From: Gammaproteobacteria bacterium | Lineage (GTDB): Bacteria > Pseudomonadota > Gammaproteobacteria > Eutrophobiales > Eutrophobiaceae | Assembly: GCA_965200295.1 (NCBI GenBank) | Contig: OZ241347.1 | Coordinates: 3,006,093 to 3,070,092 of the forward strand | Length of the DNA: 64,000 bases | Reading direction: 5' to 3' | Shown here: positions 197 through 63,890 of the stretch, one piece after another | Numbering within the stretch: position 1 is the first letter of the stretch | Layout: each line of letters opens with the position of its first letter | Translations under genes and position numbers: made by a program | The notes under the pieces: generated by a model | The model's database searches: none | What the model saw: the letters and a program-made list of their open reading frames with translations, nothing else | Told to the model about the DNA's origin: nothing

Positions 197-345
197 GTAA
201 CCTCTAAAAATGCCCTCCGTGGCATTTTTAGCGACGGAAACGGAAAAATGCGATTTTCCGTTTCCGTCATTTTCAGTCACTCACGTGACTAAAAATGGCA
301 GCATATCCCTATGCTGCACAGGCGCCTCTAATTTTTAGAGGCGCC
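197..345. repeat. Full copy of the composite palindromic intergenic repeat (REP/MITE-like), lying between gspG and gspH
   Basis: Five consecutive hairpins are seen directly: cctctaaaaatgcc-ctccgt-ggcatttttagagg; gacggaaacggaaaa...ttttccgtttccgtc; agtcactcacgtgact; gcagcatatccctatgctgc; ggcgcctctaatttttagaggcgcc. The same architecture recurs at least 8 more times in the window. Confidence 0.8.
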
Positions 346-363
346 TTGAACTCGCCAGCCGTA

Positions 364-816
364 ATGCCCGGCGCAACGGTGCGGCGGGGTTTCAGCCTGC
401 CGGAATTGCTGCTGGCGCTCATTATCCTGTCTTTGCTTCTGGGCCTCAGCGCGCCGCTGTTGACCCATGCGCTTGACGGCGCCCGTCTCAAGCGGACGCA
501 ACGGGAGATTGTTTCCGCCCTGCGGTTTTCCCGCAGCAGGGCCATCAACACCCAGCGCGTGGTTATATTCTCTCTTGATACTCATACCGGTGCCATGCGC
601 ACGGGAGCAGATGAACGCCACATCTCATTGCCCGATGGTGCCACCTTGGGTATACAGGTTGAGCCTGCCGAGCAGTTGTCGGCCCAGGAATACGCGGTGC
701 GGTTCTATCCGGACGGCAGCGCTACGGATATGACGCTGTCGTTCCGGCGTGGCGGGCAGATTTTCCGCATTGAGGTGGATGCCCTGACGGGCAGGGTAAC
801 TCGTTTTGCGCCATAA
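364..816 (+). CDS. gspH: T2SS minor pseudopilin GspH
   Basis: Prepilin leader 'MPGATVRRGF/SLPELLLALIILSLLLG'. Start moved to the ATG at 364 because the ORF-track start at 295 lies inside the palindromic repeat. Confidence 0.75.
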   Translation: MPGATVRRGFSLPELLLALIILSLLLGLSAPLLTHALDGARLKRTQREIVSALRFSRSRAINTQRVVIFSLDTHTGAMRTGADERHISLPDGATLGIQVEPAEQLSAQEYAVRFYPDGSATDMTLSFRRGGQIFRIEVDALTGRVTRFAP

Positions 817-1198
817 TTGCGCTGCATCCCAGCACGGTTTCACCCTGTTGGAGGTCATGGTGGCGTTTGTCATCACCACCATGGCTCTGGGCGCCTTATA
901 CCCAATCTATGTCAAAGGAGCTGCCGCACTGGACCTGGCGCGAGACTACGCCTCGGCGCTGTCCATCGCGGAATCGAAACTGGCTGAAGCCCTCCGCCCG
1001 GACCTGCCGCAACAAGGCCGGGAGCTGGACCGGTTCGATTGGGAACTCTCAACGCAAACGTATATCAACGTGAGCTTGGATGAGGTGTCCTCTCTGTCTT
1101 ACACACTGCTTCTGGTCGAAGTCAATGTGCGCTGGCAAAATCGGGGCAAGATCCATGATACAACCCTGCAAACACTGAAGCCGACGCTACGTGATTAG
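806..1198 (+). CDS. gspI: T2SS minor pseudopilin GspI
   Basis: 'QHGFTLLEVMVAFVITTMALGALY' prepilin N-terminus with a TTG start. Overlaps the gspH stop. Size and position fit GspI. Confidence 0.7.
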   Translation: MRHNCAASQHGFTLLEVMVAFVITTMALGALYPIYVKGAAALDLARDYASALSIAESKLAEALRPDLPQQGRELDRFDWELSTQTYINVSLDEVSSLSYTLLLVEVNVRWQNRGKIHDTTLQTLKPTLRD

Positions 1199-1850
1199 TT
1201 CGGTTTTCGCACCTGTGCGTCGTAACGGCTTCGCCCTGCCGGAAGCATTGTTGGCGATGCTCCTGCTCATGTTTATTGTGCTGATACTGTACAGCGCGCT
1301 GTTCTCCACAGGCAATTACCAGCGCGCCGGCGATATTCGGCTGCGCCACAACGATGACAAGCGCTTTGTCCACTCCTTCCTGCGTCGGCAGGTTGAGCAA
1401 GCCGTGCCGTTGATAGCAGTGGAAAATGGCGTTGTGCAGGCATTGTTCCGCGGCAATGAACACATGCTGCGATTTGTCGGCCCATTGCCTTCCTATCAGC
1501 GAGATGACGGATTGTATTTGCAGGAATTATCGCTGGCTGATGACGCGCTGATACTCCGCTATCACCCGCTGACCCGTGCAGCGGCGCTGTTTGCTGACGA
1601 CGGTCTGGCGGGCACCGAGCAGATCATCCTGGCGGACTCGGTTGAACGGCTTGAATTAGCCTATTTCGGCCGCCACACGGCAGGCGGCGCGGCGCACTGG
1701 CGAGATGCCTGGGATAACCCGGAATGGTTGCCATCGCTGTTGAGACTGGGTGTCGTAATGGAACAACGCGAGGTCTGGCCGGCGCTGGTGGTCGCACTGC
1801 GTGCACAAGCTGAATGGCGCCCGCCACAGTTGGGGTTGTACCTGCAATAA
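1191..1850 (+). CDS. gspJ: T2SS minor pseudopilin GspJ
   Basis: 'RRNGFALPEALLAMLLLMFIVL' prepilin-like N-terminus. About 219 aa, positioned between gspI and gspK. Confidence 0.7.
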   Translation: MISSVFAPVRRNGFALPEALLAMLLLMFIVLILYSALFSTGNYQRAGDIRLRHNDDKRFVHSFLRRQVEQAVPLIAVENGVVQALFRGNEHMLRFVGPLPSYQRDDGLYLQELSLADDALILRYHPLTRAAALFADDGLAGTEQIILADSVERLELAYFGRHTAGGAAHWRDAWDNPEWLPSLLRLGVVMEQREVWPALVVALRAQAEWRPPQLGLYLQ

Positions 1851-1854
1851 CGAC

Positions 1855-2784
1855 ATGCAGAGCAATAACGAACAGCGCGGCGTGGTTCTGGTACTGGTGC
1901 TGTGGTTGCTGGCGCTCCTGAGTCTCATGGCCGGCGCGCATAGCTACGCCCTGCGAACCGAAACCTGGTTGACCATTCACGCGCAGGACCGGGCGCGGGC
2001 GCGGGCGGTGGCCGAAGCCGGGGTGTGGCTGGCCGTGGCCGACCTGTTAAGCCCGCCCTCGGCGCAAAGCTGGCCGCATGATGGCACCCCCATCGAGGTC
2101 AACTTTACGGCCGGCGCCATCGAGTTGCGCATACAGGATGAAGCCGGCCTGATCGATATTAACAGCGCCGATGACGCCTTGTTACAAGGGTTGTTGGTCA
2201 ACGCCGCGCCACCGGGGCAAGATGCCGCACTGTTGTTTGACGCCCTGCTGGATTGGCGCGATGCCGATTCCAACCGGCGCAGTGGTGGCGTAGAAGATCA
2301 GGACTACCAGCACACACTGCATGACTCAAAGAATGGCCCCTTTAACAGCATCGAAGAATTACGCCGGGTCGCAGGGATGAGTGGTACAATTTACCGCGCC
2401 ATCCGCCCTGCCGTCACCATCCACTCCCTGCAACCCGGGTTCAACCCGGCGCTGGCGCCGCGGGCCGCGCTCGAAGCCATACCGGGCAGCCGTGCAGAAC
2501 TGATCGATGCGTATCTGGCTACACGTCATGTGCCGGGGCAAACGGCTACCATCACGGACACAGCCCACCACCACTTCAACGCGCGCCAAGGACTCACGCT
2601 GAGTATTACCAGCACCGGCCGGGTGGGTCACGGCAGGTTACAGGTGCACGCAGTGGTGGCGCTGGATCGCACGCGTACGCCGCCTTATTCGGTGCTGGGC
2701 TGGCGCGAGTCGCGCCTGCCTTATACACATCCGTTACACCCGGATGATCAGGACTTTTTGCCCCCCGATGACAGCAAAAATTAA
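1855..2784 (+). CDS. gspK: T2SS minor pseudopilin GspK
   Basis: ATG at 1855 gives 'MQSNNEQRGVVLVLVLWLLALLSLMA...', the GspK-type N-terminus. About 310 aa. Confidence 0.7.
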   Translation: MQSNNEQRGVVLVLVLWLLALLSLMAGAHSYALRTETWLTIHAQDRARARAVAEAGVWLAVADLLSPPSAQSWPHDGTPIEVNFTAGAIELRIQDEAGLIDINSADDALLQGLLVNAAPPGQDAALLFDALLDWRDADSNRRSGGVEDQDYQHTLHDSKNGPFNSIEELRRVAGMSGTIYRAIRPAVTIHSLQPGFNPALAPRAALEAIPGSRAELIDAYLATRHVPGQTATITDTAHHHFNARQGLTLSITSTGRVGHGRLQVHAVVALDRTRTPPYSVLGWRESRLPYTHPLHPDDQDFLPPDDSKN

Positions 2785-3829
2785 ACAGCGCCTAGGGGCC
2801 GCGCTGGCTTGGTGGTCAGCCGGGTTGCTGTCCGCCTTACCGGCGCGCTGGGCCGCCAAACTGGTCACTCCGATTGATACGATGACTGTTACGCGCCAGG
2901 CCGATGAACTGGTATTCAAGCTGTATGACGGGGACGGCACAGCGCTGCTTGAGCAACGCAGCATGGATGTGGGTGATGCCGCCGCGCAGGACGAGGTCAA
3001 CCGTTGGTTTGCTCAGCGTCAACGCAACGTCAGGCTGGTACTGCTGCTGCCCGGCGCTGCCTTGCTGGAAAAGCGCTTGGTGTATCCCTTGAGCGCGGCA
3101 CCGGACTTGCGCGCGCTGCTGGCCTTTGAGGTGGAACGGCTAACGCCGTTCAGCTGCGAGCAAGTGTACTTTGACTACGCTATCACCCGCCGCGATGAGG
3201 ACAGCAACCGGCTCCATATCGATATGTACCTGGCATTGAGGGAAACTGTTCAAGAACAAATTGACGGCTTGCGCTTCCTGGCGTTAACACCCGCGGCGGT
3301 CACAGCAGACAAGGCAAAGTCCCGCATTAACTTCCTGCCTGAGGCTGCGCGCGGCGTTACTTCACCGGCAGCCCGACCACTCCTGTTGCCTGCACTGTTG
3401 TGCCTGGTCCTGTTGATTATCGCGCTGTACACCCCGCTGCTACGTTACGAGGCATTAACCGAGCAGCTTGAGGCACAAGTGCGTGATAACCGCGCCAAGG
3501 CGCTGCAAGCCCAGGCACAGACGGCCGGACAACAGCTTGCCCTGGACCGTGCCCGGTTTCTATCAACCCAACCACGCTTCCCCGCGCCGGCGATGCAGCT
3601 GCTGCTGACGCTGACTCGCAGCCTGCCTGACCACACCTCGGTGCAGCAAATCATCCTGCGCACAGATGAGATTCAGCTACAGGGCGAGTCTGCCGCCGCA
3701 GCCTCGCTCATCGGACTAATCGAGGCCTCGAACTATTTTGAGCAGGTGGAGTTTCGCGCGCCGTTGACCAAAAACGCCCATGACGGCAGGGAGCGGTTTC
3801 ACCTGGCAGCCCGGTTGCGGCAGCCATGA
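2744..3829 (+). CDS. gspL: T2SS inner-membrane component GspL (start uncertain; a plausible ATG lies at 2768)
   Basis: Size (about 355 aa) and position between gspK and gspM. Has a central hydrophobic segment 'LLLPALLCLVLLIIALY'. Confidence 0.6.
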   Translation: MIRTFCPPMTAKIKQRLGAALAWWSAGLLSALPARWAAKLVTPIDTMTVTRQADELVFKLYDGDGTALLEQRSMDVGDAAAQDEVNRWFAQRQRNVRLVLLLPGAALLEKRLVYPLSAAPDLRALLAFEVERLTPFSCEQVYFDYAITRRDEDSNRLHIDMYLALRETVQEQIDGLRFLALTPAAVTADKAKSRINFLPEAARGVTSPAARPLLLPALLCLVLLIIALYTPLLRYEALTEQLEAQVRDNRAKALQAQAQTAGQQLALDRARFLSTQPRFPAPAMQLLLTLTRSLPDHTSVQQIILRTDEIQLQGESAAAASLIGLIEASNYFEQVEFRAPLTKNAHDGRERFHLAARLRQP

Positions 3830-4398
3830 AGCACAGGATTTTGACACCCGGACTGCACGCCCTGCTGGCTGTCGGTATCACGCTTATTCTCTTAGGGGCG
3901 CTGTATTATGCGCTGCTATGGCCGGCGCTGAGCAGCCGCGCAGTAAGCGCCGAACGTCTGGCCGCCCTGCACTTCCAGCAACAACGCTTCGAGCAGCTTG
4001 CCCGCGCGCCCGAACAGCCTGGCGCAGCGCCGGCCTTGTTGATCGGCCCGGACTCCGCCGAGTTTCTGCCAGAACAAGCGCCCGCCCTGGCCGGGGCCTA
4101 TCTGCAACAGCGATTGAGCGCTCTGGTAACCGAGGCTGGCGGCGCCCTGCTCAGCAGCCAGGTGTTGTCGAACCATGCCGATAACAGCCTGTTCCCTGCG
4201 GTAACCGTGAAGGCATCGTTGAACGGCAGCATGGCCACACTGCACCGGCTCCTGTACCGGATTGAAAGCCACCGACCGGTGTTGCTACTGGATAACCTGC
4301 TGATACAGGCGCGCAACGCCGGCGCGCCCGCCGAGCCGGATGAGCTGGACATCCGGTTTGATGTGACGGCCTTCATCTACCGGGCGCAGCAACCATGA
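3826..4398 (+). CDS. gspM: T2SS protein GspM
   Basis: 190 aa with an N-terminal transmembrane segment 'LHALLAVGITLILLGALYYALLW'. Overlaps the gspL stop. Confidence 0.65.
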   Translation: MKHRILTPGLHALLAVGITLILLGALYYALLWPALSSRAVSAERLAALHFQQQRFEQLARAPEQPGAAPALLIGPDSAEFLPEQAPALAGAYLQQRLSALVTEAGGALLSSQVLSNHADNSLFPAVTVKASLNGSMATLHRLLYRIESHRPVLLLDNLLIQARNAGAPAEPDELDIRFDVTAFIYRAQQP

Positions 4399-4898
4399 TG
4401 CCCATGGTCCGCTTGCTGCGTCGCTTGCTGTTAGGGGCAAGCGTTGGTCTGGCCGGGTACAGCGTGTATGAATGGACCCGGCCCTATGTTGCGCCTGATG
4501 TTGTGCCATCTGTGAAACAGGACACAGCGGCGCTGCTGACAACCGTCAGCGCCAGCACATATAACCTGCCACCCGTTGAAACCTTTGCCGAAATCCTGGA
4601 ACGCCCGCTGTTCAGGGCCGACCGGCGCCCTTACACCGCGCCGCAACCCGTGACGGTCGATGAACCGGCGCCAGCGCCCGTGCCGGAAATTCCCCTGACC
4701 GAGCAAGTGGCCCTGCGCGCCACCATTATCATCGGCGAGAAACGGATTGCCCTGCTGCACGATATGGTCAACGACAGCCCACTCCGGCTGAGCCAGGGCG
4801 ACAGCGTGCACGGCTGGACGCTGACCGAAGTGGGCACCAACAGTGTAGCCCTGCAGAAAGGCGGGATGACAGAACGTCTGGCGCTGCAACAGGAATAA
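4395..4898 (+). CDS. gspN: T2SS GspN/GspC-like protein (N-terminal transmembrane segment plus a homology-region-type C-terminal domain)
   Basis: 167 aa with a transmembrane segment 'LLLGASVGLAGYSV'. C-terminal 'IIIGEKRIALLHDMVNDSPLRLSQGDSVHGWTLTEVGTNSVAL' resembles the HR/PilP-like fold of GspC/XpsN. Position follows gspM. Confidence 0.5.
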   Translation: MMPMVRLLRRLLLGASVGLAGYSVYEWTRPYVAPDVVPSVKQDTAALLTTVSASTYNLPPVETFAEILERPLFRADRRPYTAPQPVTVDEPAPAPVPEIPLTEQVALRATIIIGEKRIALLHDMVNDSPLRLSQGDSVHGWTLTEVGTNSVALQKGGMTERLALQQE

Positions 4899-4912
4899 GC
4901 CAAATCATAACC

Positions 4913-6643
4913 ATGAGCATAACAACCATCGGCGAGGCGCTGGTCAAGGCCGGCAAGTTACAACCCGAAGAGCTGCAACAGGCGCTGTCAGTCAACGACC
5001 AACAAGCTGACGGCATTGGCCCGCTGCTGGTGCGGCTTGGCCTGGTGTCGGAGGCTGATCTGGTGAACGCCTATGCCGAACATTACCACCTGGAACGTCT
5101 GGCAGACCATGAAATCCCCGTCGCGCCGCTCAACCCGGACCTGTTTGCCGGCGTTTTTCTGGAACAGGCGGGCGTGTTGCCGGTCAGTGAGGAACGCGAG
5201 CGCATCACTCTGGCCGTAACCGACCCGGACGATCATTTTACCGTGCGCGCAGTGGAACTCGCCTGTGGCAAGGCGGCGCTGCTCAAGCTGGCGAGCATCA
5301 GCCAGATGGACAATGCCCTGCGCCGCCTCTACGGCGACGACAAGTCCACCATGGAGGACATTGTCGAGGCGATACCCGCCGATGCAGTCGCGACCGGAGA
5401 GGATTCTGTGGCAGAACTACGCTCTCTCGCCGCCGAAGCGCCCATCATCCGGCTGGTTAACCTGATCATCAACCGCGCCGTGAGCCTGCGCGCCTCCGAC
5501 ATTCACATTGAACCGTTTGCCAGACGGATGAGTGTGCGCTATCGCATCGACGGACTGTTACAGGACGCCGAGGCGCCGCCAGCCCATTCCGGCGCGGCAA
5601 TTATCTCCCGCATCAAGATCATGGCCCGGCTGAACATCGCCGAGCGGCGTTTGCCGCAGGACGGACGCATACAGCTACGCGCCCAGGGTCGGCTGTTGGA
5701 CTTGCGGGTCTCGACGTTTCCCACCCTGTACGGGGAGAGCATGGTGTTGCGCATTCTGGACCAGGGCCAGGGGAACGCCACGCTGGAACAACTCGGTTTT
5801 AACCCGGCGGTGGCGCAAGGATTGCAGCAGTTGCTGACCCTGCCCCACGGCATCATCCTGGTCACCGGCCCCACCGGCAGCGGCAAGACCACCACCTTGT
5901 ATGCCGCCTTGCAGCGCCTGAACACGGCTGAGCGCAAAATCCTCACGGTAGAAGACCCGGTGGAATACCAGCTTGAGGGCATCAATCAGATGCAGGTGAA
6001 ACCACAAATCGGGCTGAATTTTGCCGCCGCGCTACGGGCGCTGGTGCGGCAGGACCCGGACGTGATCATGATCGGCGAGATGCGCGATGTGGAAACGGCC
6101 CGGATTGCGGTGCAGGCGGCGCTCACCGGCCATCTGGTATTCTCCACGCTACACACCAACGACGCCGGCAGTTCCATCACCCGCCTGTTGGACATGGGCA
6201 TTGAGGATTATCTGCTGACCTCTACCCTGAGCGGCATCCTGGCGCAACGCCTGGTGCGTACCTTGTGCCACGCCTGTCGGTCGGCTTACGCACCGGACCC
6301 GGCCTTGTACGCACAGTTACAGCAAGAGCTACCTGCAGGGGACGCTGATAACATCCCGCAGAACAACGAAGGCCACCCGGACGTACCGCACCTGTACCAG
6401 GCCAACGGCTGTGACGCTTGTGCCCACACCGGCTATCGCGGGCGCACTGTCATCGGTGAGTTATTGCTCCTGTCCGATACCTTGCGCAGCCTGGTACGCA
6501 AGGGCGCGGACGGCAAAGTCATCCAGCAGGCCGCCATACATGCCGGCATGGACAGCATGCGCACAGACGGGATCAAAAAAGCGCTGGCCGGCATGACCAC
6601 GGTTGAGGAGATCACACGGGTTACCCAATGCTCTCCTGGTTGA
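4913..6643 (+). CDS. gspE: T2SS ATPase GspE
   Basis: 576 aa with Walker A 'GPTGSGKTT' and a tetracysteine 'CHACRS...CDACAHTGYRGR' zinc motif. Typical GspE/PulE family features. Confidence 0.9.
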   Translation: MSITTIGEALVKAGKLQPEELQQALSVNDQQADGIGPLLVRLGLVSEADLVNAYAEHYHLERLADHEIPVAPLNPDLFAGVFLEQAGVLPVSEERERITLAVTDPDDHFTVRAVELACGKAALLKLASISQMDNALRRLYGDDKSTMEDIVEAIPADAVATGEDSVAELRSLAAEAPIIRLVNLIINRAVSLRASDIHIEPFARRMSVRYRIDGLLQDAEAPPAHSGAAIISRIKIMARLNIAERRLPQDGRIQLRAQGRLLDLRVSTFPTLYGESMVLRILDQGQGNATLEQLGFNPAVAQGLQQLLTLPHGIILVTGPTGSGKTTTLYAALQRLNTAERKILTVEDPVEYQLEGINQMQVKPQIGLNFAAALRALVRQDPDVIMIGEMRDVETARIAVQAALTGHLVFSTLHTNDAGSSITRLLDMGIEDYLLTSTLSGILAQRLVRTLCHACRSAYAPDPALYAQLQQELPAGDADNIPQNNEGHPDVPHLYQANGCDACAHTGYRGRTVIGELLLLSDTLRSLVRKGADGKVIQQAAIHAGMDSMRTDGIKKALAGMTTVEEITRVTQCSPG

Positions 6644-6980: not shown

Positions 6981-7203
6981 TGGGTCGGCTGTCAGGGTTT
7001 AATACCGGCAGGTTATCAGCAAACTGAAAAAAACTGGATTTGAGTTTGACAGGCAGGCTGCCAGCAGCCATGAGATCTGGTTCAATCCCAAAACTGGCAG
7101 ATATACCACCATTCCCAATCATCCGGGCGATATGCCTGAAGGAACTCTGAGGGCGATTCTCAAGCAGGCAGAGGTCGAAGTAAACCTGTTTTTGGAAGCT
7201 TGA
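6980..7203 (+). pseudogene. hicA: HicA-family toxin with an apparent +1 frame disruption near codon 9
   Basis: The ATG at 6980 reads 'MGRLSGFNTG...' and hits a stop after 15 codons. The +1 frame from about 7006 reads 'RQVISKLKKTGFEFDRQAGSSHEIWFNPKTGRYTTIPNHPGDMPEGTLRAILKQAEVEVNLFLEA*', a complete HicA body. Confidence 0.6.
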
Positions 7204-23905: not shown

Positions 23906-25250
23906 GTAAAATGGTGTTTTTTTGAAGAGCAACCTACAACATAAGAGAGGTACACCACCATGCAGAACGATACTGTAGTTTCCTTAAAAAAGCCAGCAGA
24001 GGAATCAGATCCTTTGAGCAGTTTGTTACGCGACGGTGCCCGGGCGTTGTTGCACGGGGCATTAGAGGCGGAGTTGGCGACGTATTTGTCCAGGCATGCC
24101 GGTGACTGCGATGCATCGGGGCGTCGGCACTTGGTACGCAACGGGTATTTACCTGCGCGCACGGTGCTGACCGGCTTAGGTGAGGTGCCGATACGGGTGC
24201 CCAAGACGCGCGACCGGGGCGGTCAGGGTCGGCATTTTACGTCCCGGTTGTTACCGCCGTACATCAAGCGCACGACGAGCGTGGAGAGTGTGCTGCCGTG
24301 GTTGTATTTGAAGGGGGTGTCAACGGGGGACATGCGTGCGGCGTTAGCGGCGTTGCTGGGCGAGCAGGCGCAGGGGTTATCGGCGGCAACGGTGAGTCGG
24401 TTAAAGCGGGTGTGGGAGGACGAGTACCGGGTCTGGCGGGGGCGGCAGTTTACGGGTCGGCGTTACGTGTACGTGTGGGTAGACGGGATTTACTTCAATG
24501 TGCGCGGCGATGAGGCCCGGCAGTGTCTGCTGGTGATGATAGGGGTGGATGAGTGGGGCCACAAGACCTTGTTGGCGGTCGAGGACGGCTACCGGGAGTC
24601 CAAGCAGAGTTGGCGTGAACTGTTAGTGGACTTGCAAGCCCGGGGCTTTGCGCCGCCGGCGCTGGCTATCGGGGACGGGGCGCTGGGGTTCTGGGCGGCG
24701 CTGGCCGAAGTATATCCCACCACCCGCACACAGCGCTGTTGGGTGCACAAGATAGCGAATATCTTAAACAAGCTGCCCCAGGGTTTGCAGAACAAGGCCA
24801 AGGAAGGCTTACACGCCATCTGGATGGCCGAGAGCCGGGCGGCGGCGCTGGCGGCCTTGAACCGATTTATTCGCACCTATCAGGATAAGTACCCGAAGGC
24901 GACCGCCTGCCTGGACGAAGACCGGGAGGCCTTACTGGCCTTTTATGACTTCCCGGCCGCGCACTGGCAGTCCATCCGCACCACCAATCCCATTGAATCC
25001 ACGTTTGCCACCGTGCGCCTGCGTACCGCCAGGACACGAGGCTGTGTCAGCCGCACCAGCCTGCTGACCATGGTCTATAAGCTCGGATTATGCGCCGAGC
25101 AGAACTGGCGCCGGCTGCGGGGGTTCAAGCACCTGGCCGACGTGATTGAGAATGTGAAGTTTATTGACGGAGTAAAACAACAGACTATTGAACAACACCA
25201 ACGGGCCGCCTGACTATGAGGCCATACACCAGATTTGACAATAACTCCAT
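23906..25250 (+). mobile_element. IS256-family insertion sequence (boundaries approximate)
   Basis: Single 417-aa transposase plus imperfect terminal inverted repeats: left 'ggtgttgtaaaatggtgt', right (reverse complement) 'ggagttattgtcaaatctggtgtatgg'. No clean target-site duplication found. Interrupts RHS cassette 25075..26403. Confidence 0.6.
23960..25213 (+). CDS. IS256-family (Mutator-type) transposase
   Basis: 417 aa containing 'YVYVWVDGIYFNVRG', 'CWVHKIANILNKLP' and 'NPIESTFATVRLR', characteristic of IS256 transposases. Confidence 0.85.
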   Translation: MQNDTVVSLKKPAEESDPLSSLLRDGARALLHGALEAELATYLSRHAGDCDASGRRHLVRNGYLPARTVLTGLGEVPIRVPKTRDRGGQGRHFTSRLLPPYIKRTTSVESVLPWLYLKGVSTGDMRAALAALLGEQAQGLSAATVSRLKRVWEDEYRVWRGRQFTGRRYVYVWVDGIYFNVRGDEARQCLLVMIGVDEWGHKTLLAVEDGYRESKQSWRELLVDLQARGFAPPALAIGDGALGFWAALAEVYPTTRTQRCWVHKIANILNKLPQGLQNKAKEGLHAIWMAESRAAALAALNRFIRTYQDKYPKATACLDEDREALLAFYDFPAAHWQSIRTTNPIESTFATVRLRTARTRGCVSRTSLLTMVYKLGLCAEQNWRRLRGFKHLADVIENVKFIDGVKQQTIEQHQRAA

Positions 25251-37826: not shown

Positions 37827-38044
37827 GAGGAAAGCCTCTGGTGTTGTTGGTTGTTCGTTTCTGCCCTGTTAAGCTGCAGGGCATGTGATTCGCGGCTCAC
37901 TCTATGAGACCGTCGCGGGACTGTCAAGCGTTTTTTGAGTTTTGTTTTTGAGTTTTATTCAGTTTAAGGCAGACTATGCACTGCTGTAACCGTGTAAAAA
38001 ATGAACGCAGAACCTCCGTTACGACCCTGGCAAACAACCTATTC

Positions 38045-39271: not shown

Positions 39272-39276
39272 TATAA

Positions 39277-39427
39277 GGTAACCTCTAAAAATGCCCTCCG
39301 TGGCATTTATAGAGACGGAAATGAAAAAGTGTGATTTTTCATTTCCTTCATTTTCAAGCACTTACGTGCTTAAAAATGGCAGCATATCTTTATGCTGCAC
39401 GGCCACCTCTAATTTTTAGAGGTGGCC
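39277..39427. repeat. Full copy of the composite palindromic repeat, between gspF and gspD
   Basis: Same five-hairpin architecture as 197-345, with compensatory changes in the stems (for example aagcacttacgtgctt in place of agtcactcacgtgact). Confidence 0.8.
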
Positions 39428-39440
39428 ATAACACACGCGC

Positions 39441-41743: not shown

Positions 41744-41850
41744 GGTGACCTCTAAAAATGCCCTCCATGGCACATAAGCAGAGACGGAAACGGAAAAGTG
41801 CCCGAAAAAGTGGGACATTCCGTTTCCCTCATTGTGTCCATCCGTGGACG
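41744..41850. repeat. Partial copy of the composite palindromic repeat, downstream of gspD
   Basis: 'ggtgacctctaaaaatgccctccatggcac...gacggaaacggaaaagtgcccgaaaaagtgggacattccgtttccctc'. Confidence 0.7.
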
Positions 41851-41964: not shown

Positions 41965-43257
41965 TTAGCCGAAGCTCGGGTTCGCGACCGGCGCCGCGGT
42001 GTGCGCGACGGCGGCTTGCAGTCGTGTTTGCACATGGGTCATCAGCGACGGAATGCCCGGTTCAAACCAGTCGTTGGCGCTGGTCACCCGCCAGGTGTAG
42101 CCCAGCGCGGCCAGTTGCCCAAGCGCCGCCGAGGCCGCCGCGACCTCCAGACCCAGGACCTCCTGCAAGGCGGTCCGTAGCGCAGCCTTATGCGCTTGGT
42201 CGGTGTCCGCGAAGACCTCGGCCACAATGTCCGCAGCCTCGACCAGCCCGCGGTCTTCCAATTCCCTGTAGCGTTCGCCGTAATAGCGCTGGCGCCGGGC
42301 ATCGACCTGCGCATACACCTGCTCTACCGTCGCCGGCGTCACGGTGTGTTCATGGGACTCATACACCAACGCCTCACACAGCGCCTCGCCCCAAAGCTGG
42401 GTAAAATACGGGTAGCCCTGACAGTCCGTCACCACCGTCTCCAATGCCGCCGGGTCAAATGTCACTGACCAATCCGCCAGCGGCTCGGTCAGCGCCGTGG
42501 CGGTGTCTTGGGCGTTAAGCCGGCCGATGGGGAGAATCTCGGCGCGGCTCCAAAACGTCGCATCCATCTCACCCAGGCGTGCTTCGAGATTGGGTGTCCC
42601 GACCAGGATCAGGCCGAAGGGTATGCCGTCGGTGCGCAGCTGCTGGCTGAGATTGAGCAGGTCCTGACCGACCTCGCAGTCCAGCGTGTGCGCCTCGTCC
42701 ACGGTGACTAACAGCGGTTGCTCACCACAGCGCGCCGTCAGCCGCGCCACCAGCTCGGTTGTCAGCGCCGCCGCCGAGACAGCGCCCAACGACACTGTGC
42801 CGAGGCTCGGGGCGCCCACGGTGACGCCATCAACGGCCAGATTTTGATCCACGTCGCGTTGGGCAGTGTCAACCGCCGTCGCCACGGCGCGCGTCAGCGC
42901 CCCCTGCCCGGTTGAGGGCGAATTCAGCAACGCGCGAGCGAGGTCCACCGGCGATTTAAGCGCCCGTCGGGTCAGCGCGATGACACCGATCCGGGCCGCG
43001 CGTGCCTGGCGTCTGAAATCGGCCAACAGCGCGGTCTTGCCGTTGCCGCGTGGGCCGTAGAGTACCAGATCACGCGCTGGCCCCCGACCGCCTTGCAACG
43101 GGCGTAATAGCTTATTAAGACAGATCTTCGTCTCGCGTACCCGCCCGGCGAGTTTGGGCGGGGGCACGCCACTGCCAGGCTGGAATAGGCCCAACATGGC
43201 CTCTTGGTACTGTTTATCACTGAAATCGTGCGGAAACGTCGTTGCCATAGCTATCAC
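41965..43257 (-). CDS. AAA+ ATPase (Orc1/Cdc6-like or archaeal-ATPase-type P-loop NTPase)
   Basis: 430 aa with Walker A 'LYGPRGNGKTALL' and Walker B 'LLVTVDEAH'. Confidence 0.6.
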   Translation of the reverse strand: MIAMATTFPHDFSDKQYQEAMLGLFQPGSGVPPPKLAGRVRETKICLNKLLRPLQGGRGPARDLVLYGPRGNGKTALLADFRRQARAARIGVIALTRRALKSPVDLARALLNSPSTGQGALTRAVATAVDTAQRDVDQNLAVDGVTVGAPSLGTVSLGAVSAAALTTELVARLTARCGEQPLLVTVDEAHTLDCEVGQDLLNLSQQLRTDGIPFGLILVGTPNLEARLGEMDATFWSRAEILPIGRLNAQDTATALTEPLADWSVTFDPAALETVVTDCQGYPYFTQLWGEALCEALVYESHEHTVTPATVEQVYAQVDARRQRYYGERYRELEDRGLVEAADIVAEVFADTDQAHKAALRTALQEVLGLEVAAASAALGQLAALGYTWRVTSANDWFEPGIPSLMTHVQTRLQAAVAHTAAPVANPSFG

Positions 43258-43289: not shown

Positions 43290-43583
43290 TCAGGGCAGCG
43301 GGGGTGCAATCAAGGACAGGACAGAAGCTCCGTCCACAAGAATATCAACGGCAACCCTATAGTGTTCGCTCTCGAACCAGGCCAGCAATGCGGTTTTCCC
43401 GTTACCTCGGGGTGCACAGAGTATGGTGTCCTTAGCGGGCGGGTGTCCTTGACTCATTCGATTGATAAGCGCTTTGAAGTGGCGTTTTGCTTCTTGCCGG
43501 CCGGGAAAAAAAGGGGGGATCAGTCCGGCGCCTGGGGTGAAGGGGTTGATTGCGGTTTCAGGGATCATGTAGGGCAAGATCAT
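43290..43583 (-). pseudogene. Truncated paralog (N-terminal 97 aa) of the AAA+ ATPase
   Basis: 'NPFTPGAGLIPPFFPGRQEAKRHFKALI...ILCAPRGNGKTALLAWFE' is paralogous to the N-terminus of 41965..43257. Ends after the Walker A motif. Confidence 0.55.
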
Positions 43584-43695
43584 ACTTTTTGATATAAGGA
43601 GAGGGGTTTTTATTCCAAAAAGATATAGATAAGTGGGGAACTTATGGAAATTAGGGGGATCAGATCAGTAAATACCCTCGATTCAGGAGAAAACC

Positions 43696-44805
43696 ATGAG
43701 TTTAATGACCCATTTAGCAACGATTGACGACCCGCGCCGTGATATCAACAAGAAGCATGACTTATTGGACATTCTGTTTTTAACGGTCAGTGCAGTGATG
43801 TCGGGGGCGGAAGGCTGGAAGGACATCAAGGAATTTGGTGATGAGAAGCTGGTCTGGTTGCGCCAGTACCGGCCGTTTGCGAACGGGATTCCGGTGGATG
43901 ATACGATTGCGCGGGTGGTGCGGGCACTGGATCCGGGGCAGTTCAATCGAGCGTTTATCAGTTGGGTCAATGAAGTGCGGGCGGTGCAGGGTCAGGAGCA
44001 GATTGCGTTGGACGGGAAGACGTTGCGGCGTTCACATGACGGGGTGCGGGATACGGCTTTGCACAGCATCACGGCCTGGGGGCATGAATGCGGGCTGGTG
44101 TTAGCGCAGGAGAAGTCATCGGGGAAGAAGAACGAACAGGCATCGGTGTTGGCGATGCTGGATATGTTACAGGTCAGGGGGGCGCATATCACCGCTGATG
44201 CGATGAATACGCAGACGAAAATTGCACGCACGATTCATAACAAGGGCGGGGACTACACGTTGTCATTGAAGGACAATCACAAGACTTTCAGGCAGGAGAT
44301 AGCGGCGTATTTTCATAAGGTTAGCCGCGATGACCCGGACCGGATAGCGGTTTATGACGAGGTGGATGGCGGTCATGGTCGGGGGGAGCGGCGCACCTGC
44401 CGGCAGGTGTCGGTGAGCGAATGGTTGAGCGGGGCGGCGAAGTGGCCGGGCTTGCAGACGGTCATTGAAATGACACGCGAGCGCCACCTGCCCGGGAAGG
44501 CGGTGCAGGCGCAGACCCACTACTATATCAGTTCCTTAGCGATGGATGCTGAGCGGGTGGCACAGGGGATACGCCGGCATTGGGGCGTGGAGAACAAGGC
44601 ACATTGGGTGCTTGATGTGGCCTTTAGGGAAGATGACAGTCGCATTCGTAAGGGAGATGGCGCGGAGAACGTGGCGATTATCCGGCGTTTTTGTTTGAAC
44701 CTGGCGCGGCTCGATGGGAAGAAGAACAGTATGCGGGGAAAACTTAAGCAGGCCGGGTGGAGTGATACCCGGCGCGCAGAGATTTTATTCGGACAACCTG
44801 TGTGA
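43696..44805 (+). CDS. ISAs1-family (H-repeat-associated) transposase
   Basis: 369 aa with a DDE core. 'HWGVENKAHWVLDVAFREDDSRIRKGDGAENVAIIRRFCLNL' is typical of ISAs1/YhhI-type transposases. Confidence 0.8.
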   Translation: MSLMTHLATIDDPRRDINKKHDLLDILFLTVSAVMSGAEGWKDIKEFGDEKLVWLRQYRPFANGIPVDDTIARVVRALDPGQFNRAFISWVNEVRAVQGQEQIALDGKTLRRSHDGVRDTALHSITAWGHECGLVLAQEKSSGKKNEQASVLAMLDMLQVRGAHITADAMNTQTKIARTIHNKGGDYTLSLKDNHKTFRQEIAAYFHKVSRDDPDRIAVYDEVDGGHGRGERRTCRQVSVSEWLSGAAKWPGLQTVIEMTRERHLPGKAVQAQTHYYISSLAMDAERVAQGIRRHWGVENKAHWVLDVAFREDDSRIRKGDGAENVAIIRRFCLNLARLDGKKNSMRGKLKQAGWSDTRRAEILFGQPV

Positions 44806-44882
44806 TATGTATAAAAGTGTGCGGTTGCCCTAAGGGATCATGGACGCAACATCTGGTCAATCTTGTAATACGATGTATATTA

Positions 44883-45033
44883 GGTAACCTCTAAAAATGC
44901 CCTCCGTGGCATTTTTAGAGACGGAAACGGAAAAGTATGATTTTCCGTTTCCTTCATTTTCAAGCACTTACGTGCTTAAAAATGGCAGCACATCCCTGTG
45001 CTGCACGGTCACCTCTAATTAATAGAGGTGACC
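44883..45033. repeat. Full copy of the composite palindromic repeat
   Basis: Five-hairpin architecture. The terminal hairpin here is ggtcacctctaattaatagaggtgacc. Confidence 0.8.
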
Positions 45034-45180: not shown

Positions 45181-45240
45181 GGTAACTTCTAAAAATGCCC
45201 TCCGTGGCACATAAGCAAAGACGGAAACGGAGAGGTGCCC
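45181..45240. repeat. Partial copy (first two modules) of the composite repeat
   Basis: 'ggtaacttctaaaaatgccctccgtggcacataagcaaagacggaaacggagaggtgccc'. Confidence 0.65.
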
Positions 45241-53707: not shown

Positions 53708-53943
53708 CGTATTGCCTCCGGATGCTGCTGTCGCAGGACTATACCACAAACTGCTTTGGGCTGAGGGTGGTTACCGATCTGGTCCCCCAAATTTCCAAAT
53801 GTCTCCCTTTATTATGACAAAAAGCATGATTTTGCCCTGCGGTTATAGGGGGAAATCCCTCTATTACCGTTATGGATTCAAATCTATTATTTGGATCGAT
53901 TGTATCGGGGCGCCTCTGACTTTTAGACGCTCTTAAAGTTTGG

Positions 53944-54010
53944 GTAACCTCTAAAAATGCCCTCCGTGGCATTTTTGAGACGGAAATGAAAAAGTATGAT
54001 TTTTCATTCA
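53944..54010. repeat. Partial copy of the composite palindromic repeat
   Basis: 'ggtaacctctaaaaatgccctccgtggcatttttgagacggaaatgaaaaagtatgatttttcattc'. Confidence 0.7.
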
Positions 54011-57719: not shown

Positions 57720-58220
57720 ATGTCTCAACCACGCAAGGTCTCCGTGCTGTTCGTCTGCTTGGGCAACATCTGCCGCTCACCTGCGGCGGAAGGTGTCTTC
57801 CGGCGCTACGTCGAACAACAGGGCGTTGCCGATCACATTGACATCGATTCCGCCGGCGCCATCGACTACCACCGCGACAAATCCGCAGACCCGCGTATGC
57901 GTGCCGCTGCATCCCGGCGCGGTTACCCGCTGACATCCGTCGCGCGCCAGGCGCTGCCCGAAGACCTGGATCGGTTCGAGCTGATCGTGGCCATGGACCG
58001 GGACAACCTGCGCTACCTGCAAGAGCTTGCCGGCGCCCCGCAAACCCATATCAGACTGCTTGGCTCGTTCCTTCCGGAGCATCAGGGACACCCGGAACAA
58101 GCCCCCGAAGTGCCGGACCCCTACTACGGGAGCGCCCAGGGTTTTGAGAATGTGCTGGATATGATCGAGCGCGCCTGTCCCGCTCTCTGCGCCGCCTGCC
58201 GCAAGCTGCTTGGGGATTAA
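57720..58220 (+). CDS. Low-molecular-weight protein tyrosine phosphatase
   Basis: 'VLFVCLGNICRSPAAEGVFR' (CX5R P-loop) with the conserved 'DPYYG' Asp loop. Confidence 0.85.
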   Translation: MSQPRKVSVLFVCLGNICRSPAAEGVFRRYVEQQGVADHIDIDSAGAIDYHRDKSADPRMRAAASRRGYPLTSVARQALPEDLDRFELIVAMDRDNLRYLQELAGAPQTHIRLLGSFLPEHQGHPEQAPEVPDPYYGSAQGFENVLDMIERACPALCAACRKLLGD

Positions 58221-58263: not shown

Positions 58264-58445
58264 GGCCACCTCTAAAAATTAGGGGTGGCCGTGCAGCATA
58301 GGGATATGCTGCCATTTTTAAGCACGTAAGTGCTTGAAAATGAAGGAAATGAAAAATCACACTTTTTCATTTCCGTCTCTAAAAATGCCACGGAGGGCAT
58401 TTTTAGAGGTTACCTTAAGGTAACCTCTAAAAATTAGAGGCAACC
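58264..58445. repeat. Full copy of the composite palindromic repeat in opposite orientation, with an extra terminal hairpin
   Basis: Reverse complement of the five-module unit, followed by 'ggtaacctctaaaaattagaggcaacc'. Confidence 0.8.
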
Positions 58446-58468
58446 TGTAACTACTCGCCCCCTGGTCG

Positions 58469-59947
58469 TCATTCCTGCACCCAACCCATGTCCTGTTGTT
58501 TGCAGAAACCGTCTTCTTCCAGTTTGATCAGGCCGGCCAGCAGGGAGCGGGCGGCGATCGGGTAGGCGCTTGTGGATAGGCCGGCATAGACTTCAGGCAG
58601 TAGTTCATCGACGCTGCGGGGCGTGTCGGTCAATGCTGTTTTAATTGCGTCTTCACGCTTTTGCCGGTGGCGCAGGAAGCGCCGTATCAGGCTGTGGCCG
58701 TCGCCGCGGGGCGGGCCGTGGGCGGGATACAGCACGTTGATGGGCGTGTCGAGCAACCGGTTCAGGCTATCCAGGTAGGTGTGCATGTGGCCTTCCGGCG
58801 GGTCGATGACGATGGTTGACAGCGTGGACAACATATCGCCCACGATCGCCGCATGGTAGCGGCTGTCGATGAAGCACAGGTGATCGACGGCATGGCCCGG
58901 CGTGTGCAACACCTTGAGATGCCAGTCGCCGGACCCGTCCGGGGCCGTGCCCAGCTCCAGGCGGTCGCCGTCTACCAGCGGCTCGCCTTGCAGGTAACCG
59001 GGGGCGATGCGGTGATAGGTCTGCGCGTGCGCCCGCAGCGGCAGCCGGTAACGCTGGCTCACGGCGTTGACCGCGCCGACATGATCGGGGTGGTGGTGTG
59101 TTAATAAAATGGCCTCGAACGTTGCCCCGGCATCGATCAGTGCATCCATCTTGTCGAACAGTCGTTGCTGCTCGGTCGCATCCGGCGTGGCCGGGTCGAT
59201 GACGTACAGCTTGTCCGTGCCGGCGATCAGGGTATTGGTGGTGGTCGCCGGCGGCAAGGTCGGTGTCGCCAACGGCGCCACGAAGATACCGGGGGAAAAA
59301 TAAACCGGGTGCAGGCCGCCTTGCGCCAGACGCTCGGACTCCTGCCGGCTGCGCGTCAGGAACGCATCCAGTCCGCCTGTGGTCAGCAGGCGCAACAGGA
59401 ATAATACCGGTGGCGCAATCTCCATTTCCCCCCGGTCCCAGGCGGCAACCACCTGCTGCGGCTTGACAAACCGACCCTCAACCAGTTCGTAGTTGTCGAT
59501 GCCCGGGATCTCGTCTTGCGGACAGCGTGCGCATAAGAACAAGGTGTCGAAGCGGACCGGGAAAAACGGCGGGGTAATGATGCGGAACAACGGCGTGAGC
59601 AGTGGTAGGTCGGCGCCATACTGCGCCAGAAAATCCTGCCATTGTTCAGGCGCCTCCTTGATCTGCCGTTGCAATGCCTGCTTGCGCTCCCGGCTGAATT
59701 CCCCGCCGAGGGTAGCGGCCAGCGCCTCCGTTTCCTCAAGCAGCTCGCGCACGGCGCAGCGTTTCAGTACCAGTTCTTCGGCATCGTCTTCGCACTGGCG
59801 ATCGAGCGGGCTGACGTTGCCGCCGGGGAACACCCAGTAACCGCCGAAGAACTTGAGCTCCGGGGCGCGCCTGACCAAGTATACCTCAGGTGCTTCGTCA
59901 GAACCTCGTATCAGGATAACGCTGGCGGCTGATTTTATTTTGGACAT
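58469..59947 (-). CDS. NUDIX hydrolase / MBL-fold metallo-hydrolase fusion protein
   Basis: N-terminal NUDIX-like 'FPGGNVSPLDRQCEDDAEELVLKRCAVRELLEETE'. C-terminal 'ILLTHHHPDHVGA...HTPGHAVDHLCF' metallo-beta-lactamase motifs. Confidence 0.65.
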   Translation of the reverse strand: MSKIKSAASVILIRGSDEAPEVYLVRRAPELKFFGGYWVFPGGNVSPLDRQCEDDAEELVLKRCAVRELLEETEALAATLGGEFSRERKQALQRQIKEAPEQWQDFLAQYGADLPLLTPLFRIITPPFFPVRFDTLFLCARCPQDEIPGIDNYELVEGRFVKPQQVVAAWDRGEMEIAPPVLFLLRLLTTGGLDAFLTRSRQESERLAQGGLHPVYFSPGIFVAPLATPTLPPATTTNTLIAGTDKLYVIDPATPDATEQQRLFDKMDALIDAGATFEAILLTHHHPDHVGAVNAVSQRYRLPLRAHAQTYHRIAPGYLQGEPLVDGDRLELGTAPDGSGDWHLKVLHTPGHAVDHLCFIDSRYHAAIVGDMLSTLSTIVIDPPEGHMHTYLDSLNRLLDTPINVLYPAHGPPRGDGHSLIRRFLRHRQKREDAIKTALTDTPRSVDELLPEVYAGLSTSAYPIAARSLLAGLIKLEEDGFCKQQDMGWVQE

Positions 59948-61417: not shown

Positions 61418-61452
61418 TTAATTTCAGCGATTTCCGCATGTAACGAGTTATG

Positions 61453-61478
61453 GGAACCTCTAAAAATTAGAGGTGGCC
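61453..61478. terminator. Isolated terminal hairpin module of the composite repeat, acting as a terminator-like stem-loop between the HDAC-like gene and the amidase gene
   Basis: 'ggaacctctaaaaattagaggtggcc' has a perfect 9-bp stem. It abuts the stop of 61478..62575. Confidence 0.5.
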
Positions 61479-62575: not shown

Positions 62576-62648
62576 AACGGTCTCCTTAACATTTGAAAAA
62601 TCGGGTATAATATATCAGGTCTGTTACGCTACTACCGAGATCCGAATC

Positions 62649-63809
62649 ATGCTGAAACAATTCCTGCGATTTGTGCTGTTGCTGGGTATGACATATACCG
62701 CCTTGGCAGAGTTGCCGAATGACGAGCTGGGCCAGGTGCAAACCCTGCCCTTGCCCTACCCGGACGACTGGGTCATTGTGCATGATGCAGCCTTTGACCA
62801 CATGTCCCTGGGCCGGTTTATCGTGCTGGATACCAACGGCGGTGAGCTCAAGGACTATTTCAAGGGCACCTTCAACGGTGGTTTTATTGCGGCCTTCACC
62901 CAGGCGCTGAACAAGCCGGAGCTGTATGTGCTGGAGCATTATTACGATCGCGGCACGCGCGGCAACCGCACCGATGTGCTGACCATCTACGACAAGGCCA
63001 CCCTGCTGCCCATCGATGAGATCATCCTGGATGACCCCAAACTCAAACGCGCGGAAATACTGGTCAGCAAGTTTATCATCTCCCTCATCGACGACGAAAA
63101 GTTCCTGTTGTTTTTCAGTTTTACGCCCGGCACCTTTGTGACCGTGGTTGACCTGGAACAGCGTAAGGTTGTGAACGGGGTGCAGTTGCCGACCTGCGCC
63201 GGCATCTACCCCACCGGCCAGCGCGGCTTCAGTTCCCTGTGCGGTAACGGTTCCATGGTCAGCTTCCAGCTTGATGAGAACGGCCAGGTCACGGAGCAGA
63301 ACCAGAGCGAGCCGTTCTTCGATGTGGACGAGGACGCCTTGTTCGAGCGCCCTGCAATCATCGACGGCACGGGTTATTTCCCCAGCTACCAGGGCCAGGT
63401 GCAGGAAATTGACTTAACCGGCGCCGTGGCCACTCTAGGCGAACAATGGAGCCTGTTAAACGAAGAAGACAAGGCGCAGAACTGGCGTCCCGGCGGCGCC
63501 TGGCTGGCGGCGACGGACAGCGCCGGGCGTCTGTACGTGCTGATGCACCCGGATGGCGGAGAAGGCTCCCACGATGACCCCGGTACGGAGATCTGGGTAT
63601 TCGACACTGCCACAAAAACCCGGGTACAACGTATTGCGCTGGCGCTGCCCGCCATTGCTTTCGATATCACCATGGGTGATGCGCCCAGGATCGTAACCAC
63701 CAATATTGAGATGAACCTGGAAGTCTATGACGCCCGCTCCGGCGCGCAACTCAACACCATTGCCGATTTCTACCATAACTGGCCGTTGCTGGTGTATGCC
63801 TCACAATAA
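62649..63809 (+). CDS. mauB: Amine (methylamine/aralkylamine) dehydrogenase heavy chain, a 7-bladed beta-propeller
   Basis: Signal peptide. 'YVLEHYYDRGTRGNRTDVLTIYDKATLLPIDEIILDDP', 'NWRPGGAWLAATDSAGRLYVLMH' and 'EIWVFDTATKTRV' are collinear with Paracoccus/Methylobacterium MauB. Confidence 0.75.
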   Translation: MLKQFLRFVLLLGMTYTALAELPNDELGQVQTLPLPYPDDWVIVHDAAFDHMSLGRFIVLDTNGGELKDYFKGTFNGGFIAAFTQALNKPELYVLEHYYDRGTRGNRTDVLTIYDKATLLPIDEIILDDPKLKRAEILVSKFIISLIDDEKFLLFFSFTPGTFVTVVDLEQRKVVNGVQLPTCAGIYPTGQRGFSSLCGNGSMVSFQLDENGQVTEQNQSEPFFDVDEDALFERPAIIDGTGYFPSYQGQVQEIDLTGAVATLGEQWSLLNEEDKAQNWRPGGAWLAATDSAGRLYVLMHPDGGEGSHDDPGTEIWVFDTATKTRVQRIALALPAIAFDITMGDAPRIVTTNIEMNLEVYDARSGAQLNTIADFYHNWPLLVYASQ

Positions 63810-63810
63810 G

Positions 63811-63890
63811 GCGCCTCTAAAAGCTGGAGGCGCCTTTGCAACATTAATGGATATGTTGCTATTTTTAAGCACGTCAGTGCTTGAAAATGT
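63811..63890. repeat. Partial, opposite-orientation copy of the composite repeat, between the dehydrogenase heavy- and light-chain genes
   Basis: 'ggcgcctctaaaagctggaggcgcc...gcaacattaatggatatgttgc...aagcacgtcagtgctt'. Confidence 0.65.

Follow-up and report, generated by a model that had tools for sequence, protein, structure and literature searches.

Several described repeat systems resemble, in one respect or another, a 151-nt repeat that we analyzed in a 64,000-nt stretch of a gammaproteobacterial genome (GenBank contig OZ241347.1, forward-strand positions 3,006,093 to 3,070,092; "the window" here means this whole stretch). Some of its copies lie among the gsp genes for type II secretion. 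The Correia elements of Neisseria (CREE/NEMIS) are transposable elements of the miniature inverted-repeat type (MITEs), of about 100 to 155 bp with terminal inverted repeats (TIRs) and a short AT target duplication, and like the window's repeat they are transcribed into stable hairpins and occur in many intergenic copies, also within operons. RNase III cleavage of their transcripts, an IHF site, and promoters have been documented (PMC10969869). However, the two share no sequence similarity and belong to different host lineages, and the Correia duplication is TA (2 bp) rather than the 4 bp seen here. Further, the 26-nt ends of Correia elements pair with each other to give one long hairpin, whereas the ends of our repeat pair internally and the whole forms five hairpins. 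ERIC/IRU sequences and RU-1, RU-2, and RU-3 are also intergenic imperfect palindromes (100 to 170 bp) that are cotranscribed with flanking genes, and orientation-dependent effects of ERIC on mRNA decay have been reported (PMC10969869). Unlike our repeat, ERIC is a single long imperfect palindrome with its two ends mutually paired, and no 4-bp duplication is reported for it; neither blastn against plasmids nor Rfam detected any similarity to ERIC.

The BOX, RUP, and SPRITE repeats of pneumococci are comparable in their modularity, with boxes that are missing, swapped, or repeated, in their clustering and mutual insertion (PMC10969869), and in their terminator-like hairpins. BOX differs in its sequences and its Firmicutes hosts and lacks clear TIRs or target-site duplications. 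REP/BIME and REPIN sequences are short, GC-clamped intergenic palindromes that exist in solo and composite forms and show stem covariation. In contrast to these, our repeat has target duplications and inverted repeats, and lacks a GTAG-type head, and no REP-associated tyrosine transposase (RAYT) was seen among 119 neighboring open reading frames (ORFs). Finally, TwoAYGGAY RNAs (RF01731) have an apical hairpin, GCC-A(C/U)GGA(G/U)-GGC, on an A/U-rich stem and a second GGA-loop hairpin on the same strand. Both features recur in our repeat, which, however, has no enclosing stem and in which the GGA hairpins are separated by about 90 nt and by two further hairpins. The comparisons below indicate that the repeat is very probably a new family of nonautonomous transposable elements (MITEs), moved in trans by a transposase that is presumably of the DDE type.

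Copies, ends, and target sites

The window contains four full copies, four truncated copies, and two or three solo hairpins of the repeat (Table 1), as determined by direct reading and by an nhmmer profile search whose model rests on 24 full copies, taken both from the window and from other genomes. All of them are intergenic according to Pfam-supported gene calls. The profile found no further copies in the window, and none in its 31-kb RHS region. Chance does not produce these matches: a 30-nt word from module 1 has five window matches with at most one mismatch and a 28-nt word from module 4 has four, against 0.00 in shuffles for each, and for the terminal palindrome CCTCTAAnnWWTAGAGG six sites were counted where 0.01 would be expected. 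The list of copies drawn up in an earlier sequence-only reading thus proved complete, with coordinates right to within a few bases, and Pfam bore out the gene contexts it had described (gspG/gspH, gspF/gspD, and after gspD). It had also noted that an ORF call had swallowed one copy, and the call at 295-816 indeed extends into the copy at 196-346. Insertion of this copy displaced the start of gspH and so produced the overlong call; a homologous GspH in the related locus L025 and the prepilin motif place the real start at ATG 364 or TTG 346. (Loci fetched from other genomes are cited by L numbers.)

Alignment of the 24 full copies set the boundaries of the element at the TIRs GGnnACCTCTAAAAAT. 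The element has GG(T/G/C)AACCTCTAAAAAT at its left and the complement of GG(C/G)nnCCTCTAAAAAT at its right; in forward reading the right end is ...ATTTTTAGAGG(T/C)G(G/C/A/T)CC, the inverted counterpart of the left end. Both the left end GGnAACCTCTAAAAAT and the reverse complement of the right end, GGnnnCCTCTAAAAAT, are kept in the 24 copies. Directly outside these ends stands an AT-rich 4-bp repeat that is perfect in 14 of the 24 full copies and matches at three of four positions in six more. When the flanks were permuted, perfect matches averaged 1.6 and reached a maximum of 7 in 10,000 trials, and the next-outer 4-mers matched in none of the 24 copies. The flanking repeats are direct and not inverted (ATAA/ATAA, TTGA/TTGA, TGTA/TGTA, and TCAA/TCAA). 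Beyond the window, duplications of TTGA, TGTA, TTAT, TGAT, TCAA, TTGT, and TAAT were seen.

Comparison of occupied with unoccupied sites shows clean insertion in three cases. The gspF-gspD spacer is 295 nt in the window (39272-39566) and 140 nt in the relative L024, a difference of exactly 151 + 4 nt, and the spacer beyond the element is homologous to that of the relatives. Likewise, the gspG-gspH gap is only 22 nt in L025, where the window has the copy at 196-346. A third comparison comes from L015, in which a copy (7026-7177) lies in the end of an ISAs1-family insertion sequence whose window counterpart (43563-43620) is uninterrupted; removal of the element and one TTTT restores 49/53 identity with the uninterrupted end. 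This ISAs1 copy in L015 is, in addition, truncated by another small repeat.

Deletion derivatives reach down to 27 to 44 nt. A 103-nt form with an internal deletion is flanked by TGTA (L004), a 44-nt form consisting only of hairpin 1 is flanked by TTTA (L012), and the 27-nt TIR-TIR hairpins are further deletion forms. The insertions at L004 4964-5066 and L044 6082-6236 lie on a stop codon, which in L044 is contained in the duplication. The left duplication copy, in L004 together with the element's first base, rebuilds the stop and thereby keeps the upstream ORF from being lengthened.

The element is 151 nt long, consists of hairpins throughout, and has no ORF of its own. Together with the inverted repeats, the duplication of fixed length, and the presence/absence polymorphism, this small size and lack of coding capacity identify it as a MITE; size below about 500 bp, TIRs, the 4-bp duplication, polymorphic homologous sites, and dispersed copies were all found. 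We propose that a putative DDE-type transposase, supplied in trans, would make 4-bp staggered cuts at AT-rich sites, so that insertion would duplicate an AT-rich 4-bp target. In a genome of about 58% G+C such targets are concentrated past stop codons and in spacers, and copies therefore pile up intergenically, operons included, and begin 1 to 6 nt past stop codons (39277, 41745, and 63810). Four-base-pair duplications combined with ends that start with GG or GA occur in the IS5 group, and IS701, IS1380, ISH3, and IS407 likewise make 4-bp duplications. The genes beside the copies are housekeeping genes, and no transposase family recurs among the 119 neighboring ORFs by Pfam, which fits nonautonomy.

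Several observations weigh against this interpretation. Neither the window nor about 0.5 Mb of loci yielded an autonomous insertion sequence bounded by the ends of the repeat, and the trans-acting enzyme is to that extent hypothetical, although many accepted MITE families have no known partner. The ISAs1 and IS256-like elements of the window have ends unlike those of the repeat, and these families make duplications of 8 to 10 bp. No duplication can be recognized at 4 of the 24 full copies or at most of the solo hairpins. The way in which the termini fold back, and the invariant GGA/TCC triplets of the loops described below, hint at constraints beyond transposase binding, and a possible orientation bias relative to transcription of 11:3, based on heuristic gene calls, could reflect selection at the RNA level.

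The ISAs1 element beside the copy at 44883 was ruled out as a parent, as its ends are unrelated. Among the fetched loci, no inward-facing pair of element ends 0.6 to 3.5 kb apart encloses a transposase; the sole long end pair, in L007, points outward and encloses a methyltransferase-like gene.

Alternatively, the hairpins might be REP/BIME-type units moved by a RAYT acting on single-stranded DNA hairpins, a lead that the sequence-only reading had raised. The solo 27-nt palindromes do look like REPs, and they often adjoin full copies in BIME-like clusters (53908/53944 and 58414/58419 in the window, and L003); covariation of the stems would also be compatible with recognition of single-stranded hairpins. 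However, 4-bp direct target duplications are present and the excision comparisons are clean, whereas transposition of the IS200/IS605 type by Y1 enzymes makes no duplication. The element has no conserved GTAG-like 5' tetranucleotide, and no Y1 transposase recurs among the 119 neighboring ORFs, a screen that a single gene could escape. We regard this explanation as extremely unlikely, and the lead finds no support: 4-bp duplications with TIRs mark a cut-and-paste or copy-and-paste MITE of the DDE type.

Table 1. Coordinates of repeat copies and other features in the window and in loci from other genomes
Feature	Sequence	Coordinates	Strand	Context and details
Full copy	window	196-346	+	between gspG stop (153-155) and gspH start; flanking 4-mers TGGA and TGAA, 3/4 matching
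Full copy	window	39277-39427	+	5 nt past gspF stop codon; gspD ATG at 39567; target-site duplication ATAA at 39273-39276 and 39428-39431
Partial copy	window	41745-41835	+	6 nt past gspD stop; hairpin 1 variant (CATAAGCAGAG in place of right arm); hairpin 2 with enlarged loop
Full copy	window	44883-45033	+	directly 3' of ISAs1-family insertion sequence; target-site duplication ATTA
Partial copy	window	45182-45237	+	hairpin 1 variant and hairpin 2 left arm
Degenerate solo terminal hairpin	window	53908-53934		GGGCGCCTCTGACTTTTAGACGCTC; 9 nt upstream of partial copy 53944-54008
Partial copy	window	53944-54008	+	hairpins 1 and 2; flanked by two minus-strand genes and thus antisense to transcription of both
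Full copy, inverted	window	58264-58414	-	target-site duplication TTAA; convergent neighbors: low-molecular-weight phosphatase gene (57720-58220) and NUDIX/MBL gene (58469-59947)
Solo 27-nt hairpin	window	58419-58445		left TIR joined directly to right TIR (GGTAACCTCTAAAAATTAGAGGCAACC); head-to-head with full copy 58264-58414, TTAA between
Solo 27-nt TIR-TIR hairpin	window	61452-61478		between amidase and deacetylase genes
Diverged half copy	window	63810-63889	-	hairpins 5, 4, and 3; begins 1 nt past stop of ORF 62649-63809; hairpin 4 with compensatory change GCAACAT/ATGTTGC
ISAs1-family insertion sequence	window	43563-44839	+	transposase 43696-44805; 34-nt imperfect inverted repeats (71% match)
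gspG to gspE	window	1-6643		upstream of RHS locus
gspF and gspD	window	37976-41738		downstream of RHS locus; gspF end 39271; gspD 39567-41738
RHS/Tc-toxin locus	window	7000-37826	-	gene for 3,614-aa protein at 26982-37826, then at least six partial RHS cassettes
Tandem repeats in 3,614-aa gene	window	34631-35546 and 36711-37421		in frame; ~276 nt x 4 (63-81% identical) and 237 nt x 3 (68-94%)
IS256-like (Mutator family) transposase gene	window	23960-25213		within RHS cassette array
AAA_22/AAA_16 ATPase gene (430 aa)	window	41965-43257	-	converges on gspD
ATPase gene homologue	L005	831-2138		70% identical DNA; element-bearing genome
Conserved gspF-gspD spacer	window	39428-39566
Conserved gspF-gspD spacer	L024	11180-11319
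Conserved gspF-gspD spacer	L025	11228-11387
Conserved gspF-gspD spacer	L028	1361-1543
Second repeat family	L007	2733-2762 and 4408-4436
Second repeat family	L015	6755-6817
Second repeat family	L005	4292
Second repeat family	L011	2524
Second repeat family	L064	3578
TwoAYGGAY RNA	L009	1035-1187		26 nt identical to element hairpin 1, reverse strand
TwoAYGGAY RNA	L019	1806-1937		26 nt identical to element hairpin 1, reverse strand
TwoAYGGAY RNA	L021	~424-449		26 nt identical to element hairpin 1, reverse strand

Hairpin fold and possible effects at the RNA level

The minimum-free-energy fold of one copy consists of five consecutive hairpins on both strands, with energies of -73.8 kcal/mol (z = -11.7) and -79.0 kcal/mol (z = -14.7). 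RNAalifold recovered the same five hairpins from the 24 copies, with seven pairs that stay paired despite changes on both sides. The modular five-hairpin build proposed from the sequence is thereby confirmed. Each terminal repeat folds onto an internal copy of itself, forming hairpins 1 and 5, and not onto the other end; three more hairpins lie between these two. Because both ends find their pairing partner in an internal repetition of one 11-nt core sequence, this sequence is present four times.

In a set of 15 copies, 95.2% of the cells were paired, and double changes occurred at eight pairs (33 cells). None of 500 column shuffles matched this covariation, and when partners were slid by one to three columns as a control, pairing fell to 41 to 46%. 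Covariation was found in hairpins 2, 3, 4, and 5 and was absent from hairpin 1. The claim that the stems vary by compensatory changes thus holds for hairpins 2 to 5, and the accompanying claim of selection on structure is one reading among several, because template-switching self-correction of hairpins, or inheritance within subfamilies, would give the same pattern. As the copies are related and palindromes can correct themselves by template switching, covariation shows that the stems are maintained but not why.

The position of three copies beside gsp genes had suggested that they tune the stoichiometry of pseudopilins and secretin. In such a model, the copies would be host-selected cis-regulatory RNAs, acting as stabilizers of mRNA 3' ends or as partial terminators, and would set gspG against gspH-E and gspF against gspD. 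Consistent with this, the fold is very stable on both strands, the stems covary, and on each strand one hairpin followed by a T-rich tail matches a terminator-like consensus: hairpin 2 on the plus strand (tail TTCATTTTCA) and hairpin 4 on the minus strand (tail CATTTTTAAG). The forward strand is possibly favored in tandem gene contexts, being the transcribed one in 11 cases against 3, and Correia and ERIC elements alter transcript processing and stability (PMC10969869). However, in the nearest relatives the orthologous gsp spacers are free of the element and in other respects conserved, about 100 kb of these relatives holds no copy, and target-site duplications accompany the insertions as with any transposon. 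Other copies lie in divergent promoter regions, beside a tRNA gene, and inside the end of an insertion sequence, which does not suggest a dedicated role, and copies are found equally in divergent, convergent, and tandem gene contexts. The terminator-like matches, which have AT-rich stems and interrupted tails, are hits to a consensus only (12 in the region against 6.7 expected).

We consider a host-selected regulatory role unlikely. The claim that the copies are present to tune stoichiometry finds no support in conservation, the gsp sites being empty in all relatives examined. The element reached the secretion-gene cluster by chance, and its retention there for regulation is without support. 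We infer that the hairpins serve transposition or survival of the element rather than host regulation and that gsp expression, if affected at all, is affected incidentally. Local effects of individual copies on mRNA, such as stabilization, processing, or partial termination, are nevertheless plausible by analogy with other MITEs, which alter transcript fate (PMC10969869).

The loops of the hairpins raise a different possibility, that the reverse strand is a CsrA/RsmA-binding module and that transcribed copies titrate CsrA or bring their neighbors under Csr control. On this strand, GGA is retained in the hairpin 1 loop of all 24 copies across seven loop variants, and in the hairpin 4 loop of 23 of 24 across 10 variants; in both, the adjacent loop bases vary. 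The RsmE/CsrA consensus is (A/U)CANGGANG(U/A), and several variants read CACGGAKG or CAGGGAUG in a stem-loop, in agreement with it. Mismatches of the A.C type, which are G.U on the reverse strand, outnumber G.T mismatches (32 cells at 15 sites against 12 cells at 8 sites), an asymmetry that is weak, with copies that are not independent. Further, a 26-nt stretch of hairpin 1 recurs unchanged in hairpin 1 of three TwoAYGGAY RNAs of a clostridial metagenome-assembled genome (MAG), and TwoAYGGAY has been predicted to bind CsrA owing to its GGA-loop hairpins (PMC4333381).

Against this possibility, copies in tandem contexts mostly put the other strand into mRNA (the same 11:3, from heuristic gene calls), and the element matched neither the CsrB/Rsm families of Rfam nor RF01731, even at an E value of ≤10. 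GGA or GGAGG is also merely a Shine-Dalgarno-like word. No csrA gene was found in the DNA searched, a sample so tiny that this is uninformative. CsrA/Rsm-binding RNAs have two or more hairpins with GGA in the loop, to which the two reverse-strand hairpins bear a resemblance only, and a CsrA-binding function is, in our judgment, very unlikely. It is similarly improbable, to a high degree, that the spreading MITE seeds Csr sites or decoys and so links the genes beside it, the type II secretion operon among them, to a global posttranscriptional regulator; if it did, the orientation of the element relative to transcription would be under selection.

The shared 26 nt do not make the element a TwoAYGGAY RNA. 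No match to RF01731 was obtained at the gathering score over the window or at an E value of ≤10 over 39200-39500, whereas L019 scores 50 bits with this model. Convergence on a short, constrained GCC-ANGGAN-GGC hairpin is the probable source of the identity, more so than homology.

Variants and distribution across genomes

The variation among copies is modular. Like the two window copies at 41745 and 45182, L002, L010, and L014 have CATAAGCAGAG where the right arm of hairpin 1 would be, and in L002, L010, and L017 TGCTGTTACTG takes the place of the spacer before hairpin 4. One copy, in L007, has a 60-nt insert inside hairpin 1. Elements also occur nested in, or adjoining, other elements. A second small repeat family, which is absent from the window (Table 1), shares only the terminal 12 nt GGnAACCTCTAA and continues with CCCGCAKATCTCACCARG. 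The shared GGnAACCTCTAA terminus suggests that several nonautonomous families may use one transposase.

To place the family, a 21-nt pattern from module 1 was scanned across a collection of species-representative genomes, yielding at least 22 matching stretches. Among the matches listed, 19 are in five gammaproteobacterial MAGs, at least 12 of these on one 2.6-Mb contig, and the three nongammaproteobacterial ones are hairpin 1 of TwoAYGGAY RNA (RF01731) in the clostridial MAG, which has 38% G+C. Full copies in at least five gammaproteobacterial MAGs are 85 to 95% identical to those of the window. In a metagenome scan with a module-4/5 pattern, true copies were confined to 13 contigs of LXNI01 and 2 contigs of MKWU01, which are sponge metagenomes from Sarcotragus foetidus and Aplysina aerophoba, respectively (Horn et al. 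2016; PMC5099237); 30 of the 45 pattern matches were discarded as chance matches. Four loci that appeared hairpin-like at first sight (L031, L060, L033, and L073) were ruled out as duplicated coding sequence.

Copies in at least five other genomes and two sponge metagenomes establish a dispersed family and rule out local duplication as its origin, in line with the original description. Within its lineage, the family is narrowly distributed. We located relatives of the window through a query with the 408-aa form of GspF (L023 to L026 and L028 to L030; about 100 kb in all, 58 to 67% G+C), and the 24-copy profile found no copy in these nearest relatives (GspF identity, 78 to 86%). Their lack of copies indicates an expansion of the family within a narrow clade. 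One of the MAGs goes by the name RHO3_bin_19, and labels of sponge studies are attached to the contigs of the GspF relatives. The hosts thus appear to be sponge-associated Gammaproteobacteria, a habitat that for MAGs other than RHO3_bin_19 is inferred. A contig of the same strain (L027; JGI 3300009910), 99.8% identical to window positions 36793-39294, stops 18 nt into the copy at 39277; such a break of a short-read contig inside the element is expected of a multicopy, assembly-breaking repeat.

The sequence-only reading had been unable to assign the repeat to a catalogued family, and our searches agree. Rfam gave nothing at gathering thresholds over the whole window and, at an E value of ≤10 on 39200-39500, only noise (MicA and caiA). 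Sensitive blastn against 72,556 plasmids gave no match, a scan of viral contigs gave 0 matches, and a text search of the literature with words from the element returned nothing relevant. Set against Rfam, plasmids, viral contigs, and literature text, the family is previously undescribed.

The surrounding region and significance of the family

The type II secretion genes of the window are split on either side of a minus-strand RHS/Tc-toxin locus (Table 1), whereas in L025 they form a single uninterrupted series, gspF-D-G-H-I-J-K-L-M-N-E. The splits in other relatives take different forms, which indicates that the gsp cluster is prone to rearrangement in this clade with or without the element. 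The partial copy at the gspD breakpoint had made a MITE-mediated split of the operon a candidate; it was rejected, as element-free relatives also have split gsp clusters. The spacer between gspF and gspD contains a block, GCGCGGCTATGRYTGCGCCCGGYAA...AAGACRGG, that is conserved among relatives despite GspF identity of only 78 to 86%, and this block may be a regulatory or leader element of gspD. The 430-aa ATPase encoded next to gspD could be a candidate secretin assembly factor of the ExeA/GspA type.

At the position of the RHS locus, relatives have a single giant SpvB/TcdB/FG-GAP/fn3 protein. The partial RHS cassettes of the window share 300-nt blocks at 90 to 99% identity and have variable ends and small downstream ORFs, so that the series has the appearance of orphan toxin tips arrayed together with immunity genes. 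The tandem repeats in the 3,614-aa RHS-family gene probably encode repeated extracellular domains.

The element itself is somewhat unusual, in its folded-back ends and in a distribution restricted to one lineage of sponge symbionts. As far as regulation is concerned, the GGA-loop observation alone could lift the family above the ordinary. In practical terms, the copies break short-read assemblies, inflate ORF calls such as that of gspH, and can pass for regulatory RNAs, and with a model of the family, sponge-symbiont MAGs could be cleaned up. Should a partner transposase come to light, its minimal substrate would be defined by the folded-back ends together with the 27-nt mini-forms. As a recent MITE expansion in one sponge-associated gammaproteobacterial lineage, the family can serve to mark strains and lineages and to probe how active transposons are in an uncultured symbiont.

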